Below are positions 403 through 7,648 of a stretch of DNA of 64,000 nt, piece by piece. Location of the stretch: contig JAVZLM010000003.1 in NCBI GenBank assembly GCA_038883775.1, forward strand, positions 1 through 64,000, given 5' to 3'. The DNA is from Candidatus Bathyarchaeia archaeon (GTDB lineage Archaea > Thermoproteota > Bathyarchaeia > Bathyarchaeales > Bathycorpusculaceae). The notes beneath the pieces are model-generated. The model worked only from the letters and a program-made list of their open reading frames with translations. It made no database searches and was not told the origin of the DNA. A program made the position numbers and the translations under genes. Numbering within the stretch: the first letter of the stretch is position 1; each line of letters starts with the position of its first letter.

Positions 403-1611
403 ATGGTTGTGGCTCCCGCTTGCCCCTCATGCGGTTCAAACCGCCTCTATAAAGACGGCTTACGCTATTTAAGCGACGGCTCAAGCGTCCAGCGTTGGCT
501 TTGCCGAAAATGCGGCTACCGCTTTACAGATCCTAACTATAAAGCTAAAACCGGATGGAGGAATCTTCCATCCGGCTTAAATTTGCCTTCCGGCTTATAC
601 TATTCTTGCCAAGGGAACGATGACCCAGACGGGCGAGTACCCTCCGCCACTGAGGCGGTGCAAACCTTGGCCGAAGTGTCCCAAGAGGAAAAGCGGGCTG
701 CGGGAGCCACAGAGATCAAACCAATGCTTCCATGCATTGAGGGCAAACTAGTGGAATATTTGTGGAAGGCTAAAAAACATGGACTTTCAGAATTAACTAT
801 TAAACAGCGCGTTAGTAAACTTAGATGCCTTGTTAAGATGGGCGCAGATTTACTGAACCCTGAGAGCGTTTCAACCGCGTTAGCTATTAGTGAATTGACA
901 CCGATAAACAAAAAAGGCTACATTATTGCCTACAAAAGTTTCGCCAAAAGTTTTAATTTGCAATGGGAGCCGCCAAGAATAAGTGTGGAAAGAAAAGTTC
1001 CCTTTATTCCAACAGAGGCGGAGATTGACGCATTAATAACTGGGTGTGGACGTAGAACAGCTGCTTTCTTACAAGTGCTGAAAGATACTGGTGCAAGAGG
1101 AGGGGAAGCTGCGAGACTTAAGTGGACTGATGTGGATGAGAAGACAAACACCTTAAGAATAAATAATCCGTTAAAGGGTAGTTTGGCACGAGTGGTCAAA
1201 GTATCACCAAAGACTATTGCTATGCTAAATGCGCTTCCGAAGACTGGCGAATTCATATTCAACACGAACGTCTCGACTGTCCGCAAAAACTTTACTAAGC
1301 AGAGAAATAAGCTTGCAGATAAACTGCAAAGTCCACGGTTGAGGCAGATTCACTTGCACACGTTTCGCCATTGGAAAGCAACCATGGAATATCACAAGAC
1401 GAAGAACATAAAATACGTTCAATACTTGCTTGGACATAAGAAGCTTGAAAACACAGACATCTACACTCACCTAGTGAATTTTGAAAGCGACGAATGGCAT
1501 GTTGCAACTGCAAGAAACATTGAGGAAGAAAAGAAACTTATAGAGGCTGGATTTGAATTTGTCCGCTATAGCGAAAAAGACGAATTGGCTATATATCGGA
1601 AGCGAAAGTAG
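403..1611 (+). CDS. Tyrosine recombinase/integrase with N-terminal Zn ribbon
   Basis: CPSC...CRKC Zn ribbon; catalytic motifs TGARGGE, HTFRH, LLGHKKLENTDIY; stop lies 11 bp before the tRNA-derived att. Confidence 0.92.
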   Translation: MVVAPACPSCGSNRLYKDGLRYLSDGSSVQRWLCRKCGYRFTDPNYKAKTGWRNLPSGLNLPSGLYYSCQGNDDPDGRVPSATEAVQTLAEVSQEEKRAAGATEIKPMLPCIEGKLVEYLWKAKKHGLSELTIKQRVSKLRCLVKMGADLLNPESVSTALAISELTPINKKGYIIAYKSFAKSFNLQWEPPRISVERKVPFIPTEAEIDALITGCGRRTAAFLQVLKDTGARGGEAARLKWTDVDEKTNTLRINNPLKGSLARVVKVSPKTIAMLNALPKTGEFIFNTNVSTVRKNFTKQRNKLADKLQSPRLRQIHLHTFRHWKATMEYHKTKNIKYVQYLLGHKKLENTDIYTHLVNFESDEWHVATARNIEEEKKLIEAGFEFVRYSEKDELAIYRKRK

Positions 1612-1622
1612 AATATCTCAGT

Positions 1623-1666
1623 GGGCCGGTAGTCTAGCTCGGTTAGGACATCCGCTTGACGTGCGG
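1623..1666 (+). repeat. attL: 44-bp copy of the 5' half of tRNA-Val(GAC)
   Basis: GGGCCGGTAGTCTAGCTCGGTTAGGACATCCGCTTGACGTGCGG is identical to 7528-7571. Confidence 0.97.
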
Positions 1667-2491
1667 TTTGAAAGTGTTGATTGGAAGGCTTTTAGAACAT
1701 GGGTTTTCAATAAATATGCTAAGAGCCATGCTCCTACGGTTTATTGTTATGCTCGCAAATACGCTTTCATGTTGAATGGTGATTTTAAAGATTTAGAAAC
1801 CTTTAGCGATAGCAAAAGGAATAGTGTTTTGAAGGCTTTGATTTCGCTTAGCAAGTTTCTAGGCTTTTATGAACAGTTTAAGGTTAGGCTTCAGAATTGC
1901 GGTGTTAAGTTTGCTAGAGCAGACGCTTTCAATAGTTTCCTAAGGATAATGAACAATAATAATGAGGATTTGCTTGAGTGGTTCATTAAGGCTTATGCTC
2001 TGCTTAGGGAAAATGAAAAGTTGTTTTTACGGTATGCTTTAATTTCTGGATTAAGAAAGTCTGAAGCTATCAACAGTTTTAACCTAATCATAGATTTGGC
2101 TAAGAATGGAAGGCTAAGCGAATATTATAATGAAGATTTGCTTTGTCTGGAACATTTCCGTTTTAAACAGTTTTTCCTAAGAGGCAAAAAGAACACTTAC
2201 ATAAGTTTCATACCGAAAAGTATGGTTAAAGCGATAGCTGAAAGTGAACCCATAACTTATGAGGCTATACGGAAGAGGCTTCTAAGGAATGGTTTGAGGC
2301 TTAGGATTAACGAGTTAAGAGATTATTTCGCTACTTTCATGGTTAAACATGGCTTGATACGTGAGGAAGTGGATTTGTTGCAGGGAAGGATTCCGCCCAG
2401 CCTTTTTGTGCGTAGCTATTGGAGTCCCAGCCTTAGAGAGCTTAGAGATAGAACGTTGAAAGGCATAGTGGAGATTCAAAATAAAGTATAA
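1623..2491 (+). CDS. int(C): catalytic fragment of SSV-type tyrosine integrase, split by integration
   Basis: The att translates as AGSLARLGHPLDVR in frame. SSV-type motifs SGLRKSEA, RGKK, ELRDYFAT, LLQGR, VRSYW. No credible start codon of its own. Confidence 0.9.
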
Positions 2492-2500
2492 AAAAGAAGG
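2490..2500 (-). terminator. Oligo-T terminator of the capsid-like gene
   Basis: Minus strand reads CCTTCTTTTTT(T) about 14 nt after the stop at 2514, in the convergent gap. Confidence 0.5.
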
Positions 2501-2513
2501 GTTTAGTGTGGTT

Positions 2514-2801
2514 TTACATTCCCCTACGGACATAGCTTAGTATTATGACTGCACCCACGATTATTGGAATAATCACTAATAACGTCATGGCAACCCAAAT
2601 GTTGTTTTGAAGCGCCAGCCAAGTGTCGTTTGCAGCTTTACTCCAGCCCTTTTGGGTTTGGCTGCTGATTAGTGACATTATCACGATTATTGCGATGAGC
2701 AGTGAAACCATTATTCCAACCAGTGTACCGACTACTCCGCCTCCACCCGCAGTTGCTTCAGCCCGTTTATCTTCTAAGAATTTCTTCACCTTTTCAAACA
2801 T
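2514..2801 (-). CDS. Small two-helix hydrophobic protein resembling spindle-shaped virus major capsid protein (SSV1 VP1-like)
   Basis: 95 aa from ATG 2801 with strong SD (GAGGGGGGTG, 2811-2820). Basic leader ending KRA, then EATAG, hydrophobic helix 1, loop with sequon NDT, hydrophobic helix 2, basic tail RRGM. Confidence 0.6.
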   Translation of the reverse strand: MFEKVKKFLEDKRAEATAGGGGVVGTLVGIMVSLLIAIIVIMSLISSQTQKGWSKAANDTWLALQNNIWVAMTLLVIIPIIVGAVIILSYVRRGM

Positions 2802-2854
2802 TAGTTTTATCACCCCCCTCATGGTTTTCCTATTTTGTTGATGTAAAGAAAACA

Positions 2855-2901
2855 ATATTTAAGTAAGATAGTATGATACCTATCTTAATATAGACTTACT
2901 T
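2855..2901 (-). promoter_or_regulatory. TATA box plus palindromic operator of the capsid-like gene
   Basis: Minus-strand TTAAATA at ~2856-2862. Adjacent palindrome TAAGATAG-TATGATAC-CTATCTTA (2864-2887) and outer pair AAGTAAG/CTTACTT (2861-2867/2895-2901). Confidence 0.55.
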
Positions 2902-2902
2902 T

Positions 2903-3460
2903 TCAACTGTTTTCTAATTGTTTGGCTGCTTCCCTAAGCAAAACCGCACAAGCTTTCCTATATTTTGGATAAAGCAGTTCAGAAGCTTCCAGGTATTCCT
3001 TGAAAAGGCTGTCATCTTCATTTTGCGGATTCAACTTTTTAGAATGAGCTAACATAGGCGCCACGGCGCCATTACCATTCCTTTCCTTCAACTTTTTCAT
3101 CAAAGCTGTATGGCTAACTTTAAAACCCATTTCCTCTAACTTTTGACTTATCTTGCGATAGCCTAAGCCTTGCCCTCGCAACTTTTCAACAATCCTTAAA
3201 GTTTCCTCATTCCACTCGATAGGCTTCAACTCTTTAGGCTGTTCCGCAGGCTTAGCCTCTGCTTGGCTATTAGTGTTCTTTTTGCGTAGAAAGAAACAAA
3301 CCCTATTATTGTAACTGTTAGTGTAGATTTGAACCCCTTCACTCTTAAGCTGACTTTCCCACTCACTTCTGAAAACTTCTTTGGGAACGATTAGCACAAA
3401 ACCGTAGGGATGAATGTCTTCCAAAGGGAAGCTTTCACATAACTCTTCATATAATCCCAT
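2903..3460 (-). CDS. HTH-containing protein of the element
   Basis: Segment WNEETLRIVEKLRGQGLGYRKISQKLEEMGFKVSHTALMKKL has an HTH pattern. Confidence 0.6.
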   Translation of the reverse strand: MGLYEELCESFPLEDIHPYGFVLIVPKEVFRSEWESQLKSEGVQIYTNSYNNRVCFFLRKKNTNSQAEAKPAEQPKELKPIEWNEETLRIVEKLRGQGLGYRKISQKLEEMGFKVSHTALMKKLKERNGNGAVAPMLAHSKKLNPQNEDDSLFKEYLEASELLYPKYRKACAVLLREAAKQLENS

Positions 3461-3512
3461 TTTGCCCTTAAAATAATGAGCTTACATCAAATTTAAACTT
3501 TAACCATAAAGG

Positions 3513-3602
3513 TTTAGGCTTCTTTTTACGAAATATTCCATAAAAGTCATTTATCGATTCATAAATCCATTTTTTGAATCTTTTTCATAAAATAAGCCTA
3601 AA
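3513..3602. repeat. 90-bp symmetric AT-rich element (nested inverted repeats); candidate recombination site or origin
   Basis: Outer arms TTTAGGCTTCTTTTTACGAAA / TTTCATAAAATAAGCCTAAA and inner ATTTAT-CGATTC-ATAAAT share the same centre (3557.5). Confidence 0.6.
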
Positions 3603-3650
3603 TTAAGCTTCTTTTCGTCTATAAATTTAATAATAAAATAAGGAGAAGGC

Positions 3651-4523
3651 TTAACTAATTTTCTTGAAAACTCGGCGAAACTCTATCCGCAATTCCCTTT
3701 CTGAAGGCTCTGAATAGATGGTTGTGGTTTCTAAACGTTTATGGCGTAGCATACTCTTAAGCCTTAGAAGGCTGCCTCGGTTCTGAAGCCAAATGTGAGC
3801 GAAAGCATGGCGTAGTTTATGCGGTGTAATCTTGTAGGGCTTATCTAAAACGCCTTTAGTGTAACGGTAAAACCACTTTAAGAAAGTCTTGTAGCTGAAC
3901 GGCAAAATTCTTCCTTGATGGTTTTCCGTTTCTCGGTAAAGTTGAAGGTAAAGCTGTTTAGAAATTGGGTTAAGCGGTATGCTTATAGGCCTATCATGTA
4001 GGCTCATTCCTTTAGGATAATATTTTTCACCCTGCCTTCTCTGAAGCGTTAAAGTGTTCTTTTCCGTGTTCACATCTTCCCAATATAAGCCTAAAACTTC
4101 GCTTACTCTTAAACCGTTGAAAGCCATGAGGCTAACGGCAAACTTGTATGAAGTTTCATAACACGCTTCTATAAGCTTCATTATTTCCATGCTTGTTAAA
4201 TCCACTCGGAACTTGCTGAAGTCAGGCTTCACTTCCCTCAACAAAGTTTTCAGAAAACCCACATCATAACCTAAAAACCTAAGCAGAGCAGATAAAAACC
4301 GTTTAGCTGAAGCCATACTGTTAGCAGTTTCAAAACTGAAAATCCACTCTTTAAATTTTAACGGAGAAACATTTTCAAGGGTTAAACCGTTCTGGATTAA
4401 AAACTTTTCAAGGCTGTTGGCTAAGCTGAGATAAGTTTTCCGAGTGTTCACGCTTTTACCTAAACAAAACTTTTCCGCAGCTTCAATTACGTTTATGGGT
4501 TTCTCTACGTTTTTCATGTTCAC
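3651..4523 (-). CDS. Intact XerC/D-like tyrosine recombinase
   Basis: NGLRVSE, PKG, TPHKLRHAFA and LRHKRLETTTIY motifs plus an N-terminal core-binding domain. Confidence 0.9.
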   Translation of the reverse strand: MNMKNVEKPINVIEAAEKFCLGKSVNTRKTYLSLANSLEKFLIQNGLTLENVSPLKFKEWIFSFETANSMASAKRFLSALLRFLGYDVGFLKTLLREVKPDFSKFRVDLTSMEIMKLIEACYETSYKFAVSLMAFNGLRVSEVLGLYWEDVNTEKNTLTLQRRQGEKYYPKGMSLHDRPISIPLNPISKQLYLQLYRETENHQGRILPFSYKTFLKWFYRYTKGVLDKPYKITPHKLRHAFAHIWLQNRGSLLRLKSMLRHKRLETTTIYSEPSERELRIEFRRVFKKIS

Positions 4524-4592
4524 TCCATCCTAACATTAATAGGAATAGAACCAAAGCAAAAATCAGAAAGAAAATATCAGAATTAGTCATGT

Positions 4593-4937
4593 TCAAAGAA
4601 CCTCATGCAATTTTGTTATAGGCTTAACGGAAGGCTTAGCCTCAGCTTGACGCTTCCGCTTGTCAATAATGTTTAATTTTTTGCCTTTCCTATCAAGCTT
4701 ATACCTTTCCAGAACCTTCTCGAAAGGAACACCACACGCTAACTCATTAACCGCATTAAGAAACATGGCTTTCCCAATATTGCCTTCAGCAATAGGATAA
4801 TAGGAATCCTCACTATCCAAAACCGATTTTATAATGAAAAGTAATTCTGGAAGGCTTAAAGGTTCTGTGTAGGCTTCTACTAAAACGAGAATATCGTTAG
4901 GCCCTTTCTTGCCATTAACTAAATGCAGAACAACCAT
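4593..4937 (-). CDS. Hypothetical element protein
   Basis: 114-aa ORF in a tightly coupled operon, preceded by a GAGG motif. Confidence 0.7.
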   Translation of the reverse strand: MVVLHLVNGKKGPNDILVLVEAYTEPLSLPELLFIIKSVLDSEDSYYPIAEGNIGKAMFLNAVNELACGVPFEKVLERYKLDRKGKKLNIIDKRKRQAEAKPSVKPITKLHEVL

Positions 4938-5191
4938 TACCGCTTAGCCTCGCCTTCCAGATAAAATTTCAGTTTAAACTCGAAGTCATCAGTTCTCAAA
5001 ACCTTAACTTCATTACCTACGCAAACAAAGTTTTCCCAAAACTGCTCTGGAACACCATCAACCTCGATAATCCTATCTTTAGGAATAGCGTAGATAGACT
5101 TTAGAACCTCATCATCCAAATTAAGAGGCGTTTCAACAATAACGTATTTCTCGTTTTCCTCTATGATTTTCCCACTAAAAATTTCCGTCAT
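4937..5191 (-). CDS. Hypothetical element protein
   Basis: 84-aa ORF; stop overlaps the next ATG. Confidence 0.7.
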   Translation of the reverse strand: MTEIFSGKIIEENEKYVIVETPLNLDDEVLKSIYAIPKDRIIEVDGVPEQFWENFVCVGNEVKVLRTDDFEFKLKFYLEGEAKR

Positions 5192-5194
5192 GGC

Positions 5195-5410
5195 TTAACC
5201 TCTCAGCTTCTCAAACTCCCATGCCAAATCAACATGGCCGTTAAAATAGTAAAGCGTCCCTCTGAGAAGCAACCATTCTAAAGCCTCAACTATTTCCTTT
5301 TCACAGTAGCCTTTCCCTTTGAAAACTTCAACTATCCAATCGAAAAGCTGGTTTCCAGAATCAGCCAAAAACTCGATTATTTCCTTCTCAAGCTTGCTTA
5401 ACTCAGTCAT
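5195..5410 (-). CDS. Small winged-helix-like protein
   Basis: LSKLEKEIIEFL...EIVEALEWLLLRGTLY pattern. Confidence 0.55.
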   Translation of the reverse strand: MTELSKLEKEIIEFLADSGNQLFDWIVEVFKGKGYCEKEIVEALEWLLLRGTLYYFNGHVDLAWEFEKLRG

Positions 5411-5643
5411 GGTTTAGCCTCGCCTTCTAAAACACAAATATCATTTCGTGAACGCATTCCCATTCCATTCGGACATAAAATACGGTAAGGATTAGCCTCA
5501 TCCACTTTACCGCATTTTATACACTTTCGGATTATAATTTTAGGTTCAACTTTAGGCCACTCTATTTTGGCCCTATCAGGCTCAGAATCCAAAGGCTTAG
5601 CTAATAAAATCGACTTCTCTCTTTCGGTTAAGCCCTCATTCAT
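5407..5643 (-). CDS. Small Cys-containing (Zn-finger-like) protein
   Basis: CIKCG...CPNG...C; start MNEGL overlaps the upstream stop. Confidence 0.55.
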   Translation of the reverse strand: MNEGLTEREKSILLAKPLDSEPDRAKIEWPKVEPKIIIRKCIKCGKVDEANPYRILCPNGMGMRSRNDICVLEGEAKP

Positions 5644-6115
5644 TTTTAGCACTTCCTAAGCTGATTATTTGCACGTTTCCAAAACCATCATCTTTGAAGC
5701 GGTAGCCTCGCCTTCTCGCCTCACCTTGAATAAGCTGAGGTTTTACAACATCATTACCTAAAATTGCTTTACGATAGGCTTCCAAAAGCTCATTATCGCT
5801 AAATTTGGAATAATCAACCGATTTAACAACAACCGAGCTTCTTTCAACCTCTAATAGCTTTGCATGGCTAACCTCCACCTCAACTGAGGGCTTCTCCCTT
5901 TCCCTAACAACCTCGACAAGCTTCCGCATATACGCCTCTTTAAACTTCAAATAAGTTTCATCATCTATGAAACCTTGATTATGCAAATCCTCGTTAATGC
6001 TGTCCAGGATAGCTGAGCTTTTCCCAATTTCAAATTTCGCCATCTTCTTAATTAAACCCACATAAAGCTCTGTGGGAAGGAAAACCATGTGTGCGTTGGG
6101 CCTTTCCTCACTCAT
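5636..6115 (-). CDS. Hypothetical protein with N-terminal RHH-like segment
   Basis: Likely start MSEERP (ATG 6115, SD GGGTGG); HMVFLPTELYVGLIKKMAKFEIGKSSAILDSI has an RHH-like pattern. Confidence 0.55.
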   Translation of the reverse strand: MSEERPNAHMVFLPTELYVGLIKKMAKFEIGKSSAILDSINEDLHNQGFIDDETYLKFKEAYMRKLVEVVREREKPSVEVEVSHAKLLEVERSSVVVKSVDYSKFSDNELLEAYRKAILGNDVVKPQLIQGEARRRGYRFKDDGFGNVQIISLGSAKNE

Positions 6116-6308
6116 TGAACCACCCGCCGGAGGAAAAGTTTGTTTCTTTAGTGAAGGGGTTAGTTGTTGTTTGTGGGACTTGGGAAAAGACGACTTGACA
6201 GTTAGACAGACAACTGTCATTTTTAAAGAAAAGACATTTACACGCTTTCGCAAACGCTTTTTTCCTTCTTGTGCAAAGTTTTTTAAGTCGTAAGTGTTCA
6301 TATACCAT
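6108..6308 (-). CDS. Small Cys-rich protein
   Basis: ATG 6308 with SD AAGGTG; five Cys; stop overlaps the start of the next gene. Confidence 0.45.
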   Translation of the reverse strand: MVYEHLRLKKLCTRRKKAFAKACKCLFFKNDSCLSNCQVVFSQVPQTTTNPFTKETNFSSGGWFNE

Positions 6309-6353
6309 ATTGCCCACCTTTCTTTTTTCTGTTTTTTTGTTAAACTTCCATGA

Positions 6354-6533
6354 TTAGCTTGCTTGTGTTTGGGTTTGGTTTTTTGCGGTTAGAAGGTTTT
6401 TTATGGTTTCAATGATGGCGAATCGGTAGAATCCGCTTCTGCCTAAGCCTAACAGTTTCCGTGCTTCTTCTACTTTTGCGTCTAATTCTTTTGGCAGCCA
6501 AACTGTCCGCCTAATTCCAGATTCTTTTTCCAT
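6354..6533 (-). CDS. Ribbon-helix-helix (CopG-like) regulator
   Basis: RRTVWLPKELDAKVEEARKLLGLGRSGFYRFAI; SD GTGAGGTG upstream of ATG 6533. Confidence 0.75.
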   Translation of the reverse strand: MEKESGIRRTVWLPKELDAKVEEARKLLGLGRSGFYRFAIIETIKNLLTAKNQTQTQAS

Positions 6534-6551
6534 TTTGCTTTTACACCTCAC

Positions 6552-6642
6552 GTTTAGTTTTCAGTTATAAAGTTATGCGGAAAGATTTATTAAGCTTTAC
6601 CGTTATAAAGTAATTTTAGCACTTGTTAAGAAGTGAATCAGT
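6552..6642. promoter_or_regulatory. Divergent promoter region with duplicated operator
   Basis: GTTATAAAGT at 6564-6573 and 6602-6611 flanking TTTATTAA; lies between divergent RHH and wHTH genes. Confidence 0.55.
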
Positions 6643-7257
6643 ATGGAAAAAGGCGTAGGCGAATACCAAATAAAAAAAGCTCAAACATCAGAGAAACAGA
6701 TTCTCGAAATCCTTTCAGATGGAAAATGGCATAGGTATCAGGAATTACTTGCGAAAACAAAGTTAAGCACAGCCACACTTTCTAAGCATTTGAAAAGGCT
6801 TGAGAAGGGCCTAATCGAGAAGCGGTTAGATTTGGAAAGCGGAGAATACCCTTATCCCGTTTATTACCGTTTAAAGCCTGATTTACATTTTGAAGCAATT
6901 AAAGAGTGGAGAGATTTTCTGCTTAAGGAAATAACTGCAACTAAAGTCAATGTTCCTGAATACTATATCGAATTCTTAAACCAATTAGTAGGCCTTCAAG
7001 CCTTAGAGAACCTAAAATACTACTTTGGAGTTACTGAAAGCGAACAAATCTTTGAGCAATTGTTAGAATTTCAAGTTTTAAGCGTTTACAGAGAAGCCAT
7101 CTACACTTTAAGAGAGAAATTGAAAGCGTCTGGAAAATCTTATCATGACTTAGAAATTTTGATAGGTGAAGCTGAAGAAAGAATGGCAACAGATTTCGAA
7201 AGAATGTTAAAGGCGAAACGCAAAGATAAGAAATTCCTAAAGAGGTGGGAAGAATGA
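6643..7257 (+). CDS. Winged-helix (ArsR/HxlR-like) transcriptional regulator
   Basis: ILEILSDGKWHRYQELLAKTKLSTATLSKHLKRLEKGLIEKR...VYYRL. Confidence 0.8.
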   Translation: MEKGVGEYQIKKAQTSEKQILEILSDGKWHRYQELLAKTKLSTATLSKHLKRLEKGLIEKRLDLESGEYPYPVYYRLKPDLHFEAIKEWRDFLLKEITATKVNVPEYYIEFLNQLVGLQALENLKYYFGVTESEQIFEQLLEFQVLSVYREAIYTLREKLKASGKSYHDLEILIGEAEERMATDFERMLKAKRKDKKFLKRWEE

Positions 7258-7571
7258 GTGATTCGGGTTTGAACCTAACTTCCACGTGGAAAACTCAGCA
7301 AATTCCACGTGGAAAACACCACAACAAAACCCTAACCAAAACCACAGTTTCACTATACCTAAGCAAAAATTTAGTGGAAAAAGCTAAAAAACAAGGTTTA
7401 AACCTAAGCAGAATCACAGAGGAAGCTCTTTCAAGCATTCTAAACTATATGGAAGCTCAAAACATACAAACAAACGAAACCGAAAGCTCTAAATTTCTTA
7501 GTGAAGCTTCTTTTCTAAAGAAGGTTCGGGCCGGTAGTCTAGCTCGGTTAGGACATCCGCTTGACGTGCGG
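7254..7571 (+). CDS. int(N): N-terminal fragment of the split integrase, with RHH (CcdA-like) domain
   Basis: ATG overlaps the upstream stop (ATGA). KTTVSLYLSKNLVEKAKKQGLNLSRITEEAL is RHH-like. Reads through attR as AGSLARLGHPLDVR, the same frame as int(C). Confidence 0.85.
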
Positions 7572-7602
7572 AAGGTCACCGGTTCAAATCCGGTCCGGCC
7601 CA
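7528..7602 (+). tRNA. tRNA-Val(GAC), intronless; first 44 nt form attR
   Basis: Acceptor GGGCCGG/CCGGCCC+A, anticodon arm TCCGC-TTGACGT-GCGGA, T-loop GGTTCAAATCC; CCA not encoded. Confidence 0.97.
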
Positions 7603-7648
7603 CTTAAGCTTAAATTCTGATATTTCCTACAATCTGGGTAAAGCAGCT

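Follow-up and report, generated by a model that had tools for sequence, protein, structure and literature searches.

A 5.9-kb integrated element of Bathyarchaeia with a split SSV-type integrase and a candidate spindle-virus-type coat gene

The window analysed here, a 64,000-nucleotide stretch of Candidatus Bathyarchaeia archaeon DNA, comprises the first 64 kb of contig C3 in an assembly (G000) of 1.69 Mb and 28 contigs. Close to its left end, an element carrying an SSV-type split integrase is integrated into a tRNA-Val gene, the insert measuring 5,905 bp from repeat start to repeat start. It encodes a hydrophobic two-helix protein of 94 amino acids (aa) that is probably a distant relative of the capsid proteins of the fusellovirus VP1 and His1 VP21 type. 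No replication protein (Rep), AAA+ ATPase or adsorption gene was recognised in it, and the element is therefore most likely non-autonomous. We read it as a non-autonomous, satellite-like relative of spindle viruses, a reading to which we assign a probability of about 0.5 and in which the satellite status itself is what we infer.

Integration site and split integrase

The element is bounded by two direct repeats of 44 bp that are 100% identical (1623-1666 and 7528-7571), confirming the perfect att repeats claimed in an earlier reading of the bare DNA (the sequence-only reading). Beyond both copies the sequence is wholly different, up to either edge, and a perfect 44-nt repeat pair within 6 kb cannot be chance. 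The tRNA gene used as the target is the sole tRNA gene within the window. The integration site and the two integrase parts are laid out as follows.

1623-1666, no strand: attL, the left copy of the 44-bp repeat, duplicating the 5' part of tRNA-Val
1667-2491, + strand: Int(C), catalytic C-terminal part of the SSV-type (suicidal) integrase (PF16795, phrog_5127)
7254-7571, + strand: Int(N), N-terminal integrase part with a CcdA/ribbon-helix-helix (RHH)-like domain (PF07362, 3.6e-6)
7280-7291 and 7303-7314, no strand: two perfect 12-bp palindromes TTCCACGTGGAA, 23 bp apart, in the first codons of int
7528-7603, + strand: tRNA-Val(GAC), the integration target, intact; its first 44 nt (7528-7571) are attR

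In the present state, Int(C) belongs to an open reading frame (ORF) at 1553-2491 (+ strand) that begins with a TTG start at 1553 in the left flank. It matches PF16795, 'Archaeal phage integrase' (Phage_integr_3), above the cut-off (E 2.9e-10, 40.7 bits, cut-off 27) and phrog_5127 at E 1.9e-16. Int(N) in the integrated state is an open 120-aa frame (7245-7607, + strand) that continues through the tRNA-Val gene, and this fragment could act as a stand-alone provirus regulator. Both ORFs cross the 44-bp repeat in one common frame, and joining 7254-7571 to 1667-2491 in silico produces a single open frame of 380 aa with no stop. Together with the PF16795 match, this in-frame junction bears out the split SSV-type integrase of the sequence-only reading. 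The arrangement has the geometry described for SSV-type integrases, whose attP lies within the int gene so that the gene is split upon integration, and PF16795 is described as the domain of suicidal integrases (PMC8371274). In a direct blastp comparison, the integrase of the element showed no similarity to its fusellovirus counterpart.

The two TTCCACGTGGAA palindromes compare with 0.08 expected, two being attained in 0 of 100 shuffles. They are part of a repeat (D20), are absent from every related locus, and represent candidate protein-binding or regulator sites.

The two-helix coat-like protein

The gene of the 94-aa protein lies directly to the right of Int(C), on the opposite strand, and is preceded by the gene of a 185-aa protein, p185.

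2514-2798, - strand: 94-aa hydrophobic protein of two helices, a candidate major capsid protein (MCP) of the spindle-virus type, with an ...EDKRA-EAT motif and an N-D-T loop sequon
2799-2902, - strand: spacer 5' of the coat-like gene; TATA-like boxes rich in A/T, ribosome-binding motif GGTGAT
2903-3460, - strand: p185, a 185-aa helix-turn-helix (HTH) protein, conserved partner of the coat-like gene

Translation probably starts at ATG 2798, behind the GGTGAT Shine-Dalgarno motif, and the homologues start at the same point. The sequence-only reading had proposed a separately promoted two-helix protein. The two helices are supported by an AlphaFold2 model (37 homologues) that folds the protein into a helical hairpin with a mean predicted local distance difference test (pLDDT) score of 82.7, and a promoter of its own is plausible because the 104-bp spacer to the upstream gene combines TATA-like A/T boxes with the GGTGAT motif. 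No other product of the element is clearly hydrophobic, leaving aside a questionable ORF of 37 aa and a frame antisense to the coat-like gene.

For remote comparisons two profiles were used, one of the close family (A1, 37 homologues) and one of the wider family (A2, 113 members). Searching the PDB (177,635 sequences) with the single sequence returned VP1 of SSV19 (7xdi) as the top match (E 0.013), and the A1 profile returned it as the sole match (E 0.005), in an alignment that covers both helices and begins at 'AE' in both proteins. Among 271 stop-to-stop six-frame ORFs of SSV1 and His1 (at least 40 aa), A1 selected VP1 as the best ORF of SSV1 (21.2 bits) and VP21 as the best ORF of His1 (10.6 bits, above many other His1 membrane ORFs). 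When the products of the element were compared with the SSV1 and His1 ORFs by phmmer, only the coat-like gene was linked, besides a marginal match of the 65-aa RHH-like protein (E 0.025). The VP1 family of SSV1 corresponds to phrog_11172 (2e-73) and the VP3 family to phrog_5402; these were matched by three and one of the 113 A2 members, respectively, and phrog_16261 ('virion structural protein') by three. Across the six-frame translated whole genomes of two relatives, phrog_11172 found three matches, all of them coat-like genes (E 0.0045-0.0096). The reverse search agreed: a profile of 120 VP1/VP3 sequences placed the coat ORF first among 17,261 genome ORFs (E 0.2), and among 185 proteins of related loci its top ranks were solely coat-like proteins. 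Aligning A1 with the VP1 family in hhalign gave a probability of 58 (E 9.9e-5, score 33.1), compared to 0.6 (score 15.9) for the reversed-sequence control. In the ESM Atlas the two nearest Pfam-named clusters were VP1_VP3 (0.88) and His1_capsid (0.87), both under the 0.9 bar and a lead only.

The layout of the protein matches that of the superfamily, with about 70-140 aa, two hydrophobic helices, a sequon in the loop and nothing past helix 2; SSV1 VP1, SSV1 VP3 and His1 VP21 all show two helices and a short loop. Members of the coat-like family have a variable N-terminal leader with a conserved ...DKRA-E end, the leader end reading ...EDKRA-EATAGG in the element protein and ...KLTKG-EATNIG in SSV1 VP1, where we take the EAT boundary to be the maturation site. 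A crude hydropathy scan called two helices in 25 of 37 A1 and 76 of 113 A2 members, and among those so called the loop holds an N-x-S/T sequon in 25 of 25 and 73 of 76, respectively. Such sequons have been noted for the capsid proteins of SSV1 and Huangdivirus (PMC10541130). Purifying selection acts on both the coat-like gene and p185, the ratio of nonsynonymous to synonymous substitution rates (dN/dS) being 0.14-0.15 for the coat-like gene among three copies within one genome.

A number of observations weigh against kinship with VP1. All links to VP1 are marginal (E 0.005-0.2 against large sets), and hydrophobic hairpins yield spurious profile matches. With the A2 profile VP1 comes only second in the PDB (E 0.052), behind a gustatory receptor and ahead of pilins and archaellins (E 0.2-0.3), and the A2 score in hhalign is barely higher than that of the reversed control (27.8 versus 24.7). 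The Pfam model PF06281 (VP1_VP3, cut-off 25 bits) misses the coat-like gene in hmmscan at E ≤ 0.1 and in a six-frame scan of five genomes reached only unrelated places (E > 0.2), while PF25665 (His1_capsid, cut-off 27 bits) left the coat-like genes of the five genomes unmatched. phrog_11172 found no match in G000 itself, and six of the 14 control genomes matched it at E ≤ 10. A Foldseek comparison of the coat model with PDB and BFVD, suggested as a check by the sequence-only reading, returned nothing at E ≤ 0.001 and proved uninformative, the helical hairpin fold not being discriminating in such searches.

A rival explanation takes the element to be plasmid-like and integrative and its two-helix protein to be an ordinary membrane protein unrelated to capsids. 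The protein might be a small channel, resemble a holin, act in exclusion or immunity, or be akin to pilins and bear a prepilin-type leader, and its likeness to VP1 would reflect the mere composition of hydrophobic hairpins. Besides the missed Pfam capsid models, the reach of A2 to pilins and archaellins and the non-specific fold searches, this explanation draws on the best Pfam matches, which are sub-threshold holin, DUF and MscS-type families, on the lack of any other structural gene in the element and on a K/R-G/A motif ahead of the first helix in 92 of 113 wider-family members. A K/R-G/A motif in this position resembles archaeal class III signal peptides. We nevertheless consider an ordinary membrane protein unlikely, although it is the strongest competitor: forward and reverse searches pick VP1 and VP21 over the other membrane ORFs of SSV1, His1 and the host, the reversed-profile control fails for A1, and the protein stops right after helix 2 and lacks a globular pilin domain. 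Moreover, distant members of the family occur in clusters with signal peptides and membrane anchors or as paired paralogues like VP1 and VP3, and no VirB4-type or pilus-assembly ATPase lies nearby. Kinship with spindle-virus MCPs thus remains the probable reading of the protein, since these are its best and nearly sole database affinities, albeit with a weaker signal than the sequence-only reading had claimed.

Missing functions, related elements and surroundings

Eleven genes lie between the repeats, plus one possible ORF of 37 aa, in agreement with the dozen or so small genes counted before. None of them was recognised by Pfam, PHROGs, NCBIfam or PADLOC as coding for a replication protein, an ATPase, a nuclease, a fibre or a defence function, in line with the replication, packaging and tail genes that the sequence-only reading had found missing. 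No domain of the AAA+ ATPase, a signature gene of spindle viruses, was found in the 11 genes by Pfam, PHROGs or NCBIfam. An end-filament or receptor-binding protein is equally missing, in that no large secreted or membrane-anchored product is encoded and the two recombinases are the largest products. A plasmid-type Rep (rolling-circle replication (RCR) endonuclease or primase-helicase) was not found in the element or in its two smallest relatives, L015 and L016, and Rep-Arvir (DUF7845, PMC13107129) is not among the Pfam matches of the element. PADLOC detected no defence genes, its sole matches being those of winged HTH (wHTH) models (Csa3/CARF-type) to the 204-aa regulator. A scan for promoters and terminators gave counts no higher than in shuffles, using a bacterial model that is inapplicable to archaea.

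The sequence-only reading had called for a search for syntenic homologues, and such relatives exist. The 37 close coat homologues are, where named, hypothetical proteins of Bathyarchaeia metagenome-assembled genomes, and their list includes metagenome contigs of 4.7-5.9 kb. A wider search retrieved 118 cluster representatives at E ≤ 0.001, all of 63-188 aa. Of the 401 class genomes scanned, three (G000 included) contain the A1 family, with one to three copies each (three in G288, two in G322), and 24 have a match to the A2 profile, these matches comprising nine strong places (E < 1e-10) in six genomes and 19 weaker ones, mostly inside ORFs of 158-555 aa. Scanning genome contigs with A1 added two loci, one on a Thermoplasmatota contig (L004) and one in Jeotgalicoccus (L005). 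Every coat locus examined adjoins an integrase or att site or sits in a virus-like gene cluster. The element and its principal relatives compare as follows.

Window element (G000): 5,905 bp with perfect 44-bp repeats; tRNA-Val; SSV-type integrase of 380 aa; no Rep; order Int(C)-coat-p185
L015 (G322): 5,332 bp with perfect 44-bp repeats; tRNA-like end; SSV-type integrase, 387 aa when rejoined; no Rep; order Int(C)-coat-p185
L016 (G322): 4,076 bp with perfect 43-bp repeats; tRNA-Glu; SSV-type integrase, 393 aa when rejoined; no Rep; order Int(C)-coat-p185
L048 (G391): at least 6.5 kb (cut); tRNA-Ala; SSV-type integrase; Prim-Pol match at 8.2e-4 (just under the cut-off) and a 486-aa partner
L012 (G288, contig C1, 7988-16283): 8,254 bp with imperfect repeats, 25-nt perfect core; tRNA-Thr; conventional zinc-ribbon integrase
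L014 (G288): ends unmapped; conventional integrase; 822-aa PriCT_1 primase-ATPase (2e-9); p185, then coat
L013 (G288): ends unmapped; tRNA-Lys nearby; conventional integrase and an Int(N)-like ORF; 461-aa protein in place of a recognised replication gene
L004 (Thermoplasmatota contig): cut; tRNA-Glu; Int(N)-like ORF; coat-like gene; no replication gene seen

In all three delimited elements of the SSV type the repeats are perfect, the integrase can be reconstituted, the genes run in the order Int(C)-coat-p185, and Rep and ATPase genes are lacking. L048 is close to the window element in Int(N), the wHTH regulator and p185 (74%, 69% and 50% identical), its coat gene belonging to another subfamily. 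L012 encodes a family-B polymerase of 1,183 aa with recognisable motifs (Exo I FDVETD, motif A DVNSEYPS, motif C YHDTDS) and is, at about 8.3 kb, the only replication-gene-bearing relative with both ends mapped; an integrated replicon of about 8.25 kb that pairs such a polymerase with a spindle-type coat gene seems unusual. No measurable relative with the Int-coat-p185 module exceeds about 8.3 kb or adds virion genes. The conserved core is made up of p185, the coat-like gene and an integrase that may be SSV-type or conventional, with replication modules swapped or absent, and defines a family of small elements of about 4-8 kb in Bathyarchaeia-like hot-spring archaea. This core replaces the int+MCP+Xer module that the sequence-only reading had expected to be conserved: in the related loci only weak catalytic-domain matches to other integrases answer to the Xer gene, and the XerA-like recombinase is an accessory gene.

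p185 stands next to a coat-like gene in six related loci. Its model (pLDDT 72.3) shows an N-terminal alpha/beta domain, a central HTH and a C-terminal helical hairpin, and neither a comparison of the model with the PDB nor the ESM Atlas gave a match. The protein weakly matches DUF6471, and PF07750 (GcrA) is on record for its homologue on contig C18 of the assembly.

Several findings speak against a satellite that travels in spindle-type particles. No circle or particle of the element has come to light, and neither a second coat-like gene nor a helper virus or spindle-virus ATPase was detected in the assembly. The p185 homologue on contig C18 (942-1463) has no adjoining coat-like gene. Neither the coat protein nor Int(C) matched any of 50,697 phage and archaeal-virus records in tblastn. 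In IMG/VR, scans with A1, the L048 coat protein and Int(C) found nothing, and the scan with p185 gave one weak match confined to the HTH. As these four scans came back nearly empty, such small elements may be systematically overlooked in viral contig collections.

Another rival is an autonomous minimal virus or virus-like vesicle element that needs no helper: a host-replicated circle of 4-6 kb would be wrapped by the single coat protein, with p185 perhaps serving as adaptor to the DNA and the suicidal integrase allowing lysogeny. The recurrent minimal gene set under selection, the three A1-bearing host genomes in which no helper was detected and the relatives of about 8 kb that add just a replication gene to the core (family-B polymerase in L012, PriCT_1 in L014) are in keeping with it. 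Described spindle viruses, in contrast, carry the AAA+ ATPase signature gene beside the MCP (10.1101/2025.02.15.638363), which the element does not. The end-filament or receptor-binding proteins annotated in SSV1 are missing as well, contig depths show no episomal excess (weak evidence), and nothing comparable occurs in the virus collections searched. We therefore regard as improbable that the members of 4.1-5.9 kb are complete as they are, which would make them the smallest archaeal double-stranded DNA viruses or virus-like vesicle elements known and their 8-kb relatives the same chassis with interchangeable replication modules.

The least probable alternative is that a once larger spindle provirus, caught in the chromosome by its suicidal integrase, has decayed to the present remnant and shed virion genes such as those for the ATPase and the fibre. 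In its favour, suicidal integrases can trap integrated elements (PMC8371274), the close relative L048 has a primase-helicase where the element has other genes, and the unitig depth of the element does not exceed that of the chromosome flank in the best-holding sequencing run (contig depths only). Against it, the repeats are perfect and the integrase rejoins without a stop in all three delimited elements. Their compact layout is found in different genomes and at different tRNA genes, at sizes of 4.1, 5.3 and 5.9 kb. Selection on the coat-like gene and p185 is purifying, and no measured Int-coat-p185 relative is larger than about 8.3 kb or has further virion genes. Because syntenic small relatives exist, the element is not a private deletion remnant.

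The sequence shows that the element entered by site-specific recombination, in which a 44-bp site within int recombined with the 5' portion of the tRNA-Val gene, so that the integrase gene was split and the tRNA rebuilt. Given the preferred reading as a satellite-like relative of spindle viruses, it would persist as a provirus. As the integrase is split in the integrated state, excision would require an intact related integrase acting in trans, or rare episomal copies. Replication would rely on the host or a helper. With no ATPase, fibre or Rep of its own, spread in particles would need a helper spindle-type virus, and we hypothesise that such a co-resident virus would provide the rest of the particle while the element adds its own coat subunit. 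In the circularised form, the wHTH gene and the whole integrase gene would make up one co-directional unit with the TTCCACGTGGAA palindromes at its start.

The remaining features of the element are the following.

3489-3504, + strand: 16-nt motif AAATTTAAACTTTAAC, upstream of p185
3651-4523, - strand: XerA-like tyrosine recombinase, intact; PF00589 at 1.2e-16, NF040815 at 1.5e-25 (below cut-off)
4593-4937, - strand: p114, with homologues in L013 (86% identical) and L048 (46%)
4937-5191, - strand: p84, matching no family (Pfam, PHROGs, NCBIfam)
5195-5410, - strand: p71, matching no family (Pfam, PHROGs, NCBIfam)
5407-5652, - strand: p81, with a CxxC...C motif, possibly a zinc ribbon; PHROG matches weak
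5636-6115, - strand: protein of about 159 aa, likely ATG at 6115 after GGTGG; N-terminus RHH-like by eye
6354-6551, - strand: 65-aa protein with the look of an RHH regulator (by eye); no Pfam family above threshold
6643-7257, + strand: 204-aa winged-helix (ArsR/MarR-like) DNA-binding protein (PF01022, 2.2e-5)

The AAATTTAAACTTTAAC motif, present once upstream of p185 in the element, occurs twice in L013 (10809-10824 and 10876-10891), again upstream of p185, and may be a shared operator or promoter element. The gene of about 159 aa, whose ORF stays open to 6301, was assigned to no family by Pfam and NCBIfam. The 204-aa winged-helix gene lies directly 5' of Int(N) in the same direction. An ORF of 37 aa with one hydrophobic segment (4483-4596, - strand) overlaps the start of the Xer-like gene and is a doubtful gene.

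To the left, the element is adjoined by an intact tyrosine recombinase of 402 aa with an N-terminal zinc ribbon (403-1611, + strand), which ends 11 bp before attL, and by a contig-cut ORF of 132 aa (2-400, + strand) for which phmmer found nothing. The contig begins at base 1 of the window, so that just 1,622 bp are present of this left neighbour, the putative helper of the sequence-only reading. Its recombinase shares 41-48% identity with the integrases of the G288 elements that carry the coat gene, and the L012 integrase holds the same position against its tRNA. The simplest reading would be a tandem insertion of two elements in one tRNA-Val gene. A third copy of the 44-bp repeat was not found in the assembly, and contig C18 holds no att-like sequence. 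The right flank is ordinary chromosome, starting with an AlkZ-like glycosylase. Elsewhere in the assembly, further fragments of split SSV-type integrases lie at contig ends (C13:13920-16980 and C19:3-224), and two more conventional integrases resemble the left recombinase (C11:1810-2928 and C4:31525-32631); there are several related elements in this host, at which the assembly is prone to break. A crude k-mer scan of the assembly found no CRISPR array.

Matching public sequencing runs comprise the best-holding run (X1) and seven others, all hot-spring metagenomes from three studies, none recorded as RNA. Their unitigs end at the 44-bp repeat, and neither attP nor attB is visible in them. In X1 the depth is 8.4-10.3 for the element, 12.2-12.5 for the right flank and 8.9 for one left-flank unitig, these being contig depths and too weak for a claim. 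Sequences related to the integrase (about 95% identity) and to the p185-coat region turn up in other hot-spring runs.

Two distant coat loci differ from the small elements. L047 (G294:C172, 8,776 bp) has a distant coat-like gene among 13 co-directional genes, three of whose products (602, 303 and 240 aa) bear a signal peptide and are anchored to the membrane at the C-terminus. L049 (G096:C191, 5,821 bp), likewise a co-directional cluster, has two coat paralogues and a collagen-repeat protein. Both settings resemble complete structural modules of viruses, and both loci are candidates for full-size spindle-type viruses of Bathyarchaeia without Pfam-recognisable genes. The Jeotgalicoccus match (5872-5967, 38% over 42 residues) is weak and probably a chance hydrophobic match.

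Comparison with known systems

The sequence-only reading had not recognised such an element as described for Bathyarchaeia. Since Huangdivirus and the SRCEs discussed below are in print, this holds in a narrower form: our literature search turned up no description of a small, integrative element of Bathyarchaeia that encodes a coat protein, figures and supplements of the cited work aside. Few archaeal virus satellites are known, namely pSSVi and pSSVx, the halophile SRCEs that were put forward in 2025, and a single putative Asgard case.

Among full-size spindle viruses, SSV1 (NC_001338) likewise has an annotated integration site of 44 bp inside int and a coat leader that ends in ...G-EAT, compared to ...A-EAT in the element. 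Integration in a tRNA gene and a genome rich in RHH, HTH and zinc-finger regulators are features shared with the Fuselloviridae. With 15.5 kb and 33 protein genes (SSV-1p01 to p33), including VP1-3, an end-filament protein and a DnaA-like ATPase, SSV1 is unlike the element with its 5.9 kb and 11 genes. His1 (Halspiviridae, AF191796) differs in its linear genome of 14.5 kb and protein-primed polymerase. Huangdivirus (Huangdiviridae), a full-size spindle-type provirus of Bathyarchaeia (PMC10541130; PMC12451623), shares by its description the host class, a tyrosine-recombinase integrase and two-helix proteins that resemble VP1 and VP3 and contain N-x-S/T sequons. By the same description, it differs in having at least 40 genes, among them VP1-3, an AAA+ ATPase, a glycosyltransferase and a polysaccharide lyase.

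The elements of the pTN3/pT26-2/TKV type are larger Thermococcales plasmids or virus-like elements and, to our knowledge, carry no VP1-like gene. Like the window element, they have a PF16795 integrase that is split by integration into a tRNA gene, and their excision is described as needing a complete integrase from a related element (PMC8371274).

With capsid-forming phage-inducible chromosomal islands (PICIs) the likeness is one of functional analogy only, in that an own capsid subunit is combined with other virion parts that are borrowed; the proteins are unrelated, the hosts bacterial and the helpers tailed phages. Said to have been described by Alqurainy and colleagues in 2023, these bacterial islands reportedly encode HK97-fold capsids and terminases and use tailed-phage helpers.

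Closer to the element in size and integration stands pSSVi, which measures about 5.7 kb and, as far as we know, has no MCP gene. Together with pSSVx it forms a size class of about 5-6 kb, and both are satellites of Sulfolobus fuselloviruses (PMC8371274; 10.1101/2025.02.15.638363) that depend on a helper fusellovirus for their spread, which takes place in spindle particles of smaller size; by our reading, the element would spread likewise. As in the element, chromosomal integration of pSSVi is carried out by an SSV-type integrase. pSSVx encodes a homologue of the fuselloviral ATPase and not an MCP (10.1101/2025.02.15.638363). Unlike the element, pSSVi and pSSVx have their own replication proteins; the element reverses this pattern, with a coat gene present and a replication gene absent.

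The SRCEs (Zhou et al. 2025, 10.1101/2025.02.15.638363) are circles of 2.7-9.0 kb from halophiles that are proposed to be satellites, encode a spindle MCP and/or AAA+ ATPase plus an RCR Rep or primase-helicase, and are likened by their authors to capsid-forming PICIs. Together with pSSVi, they come nearest to the element among described systems. With its 5.9 kb the element falls within their size range, and both combine small size with an MCP-type hydrophobic alpha-helical coat gene (the assignment being probable for the element) and the lack of a full morphogenetic module; in addition, larger relatives of the element join the coat gene to a plasmid-type primase-helicase. SRCEs, in contrast, are free circles with a Rep and often an AAA+ ATPase, and the element is integrated and has neither. 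The main text on SRCEs mentions no integrase (figures and supplements aside), whereas the element has a suicidal SSV-type integrase, a conserved p185 and hot-spring Bathyarchaeia-like hosts.

If the coat assignment is true, capsid-encoding satellites would extend to a third host group and habitat, the Bathyarchaeia of hot springs, with two features beyond the text on SRCEs, namely chromosomal integration by a suicidal integrase and the total loss of replication genes in the smallest members. The relatives form a natural series of the core alone, the core with a primase-helicase and the core with a family-B polymerase, which could show how spindle-virus modules and plasmid replicons recombine. 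By analogy with these systems, we infer that the element would be an integrating, replication-gene-less counterpart of the SRCE satellites and pSSVi.

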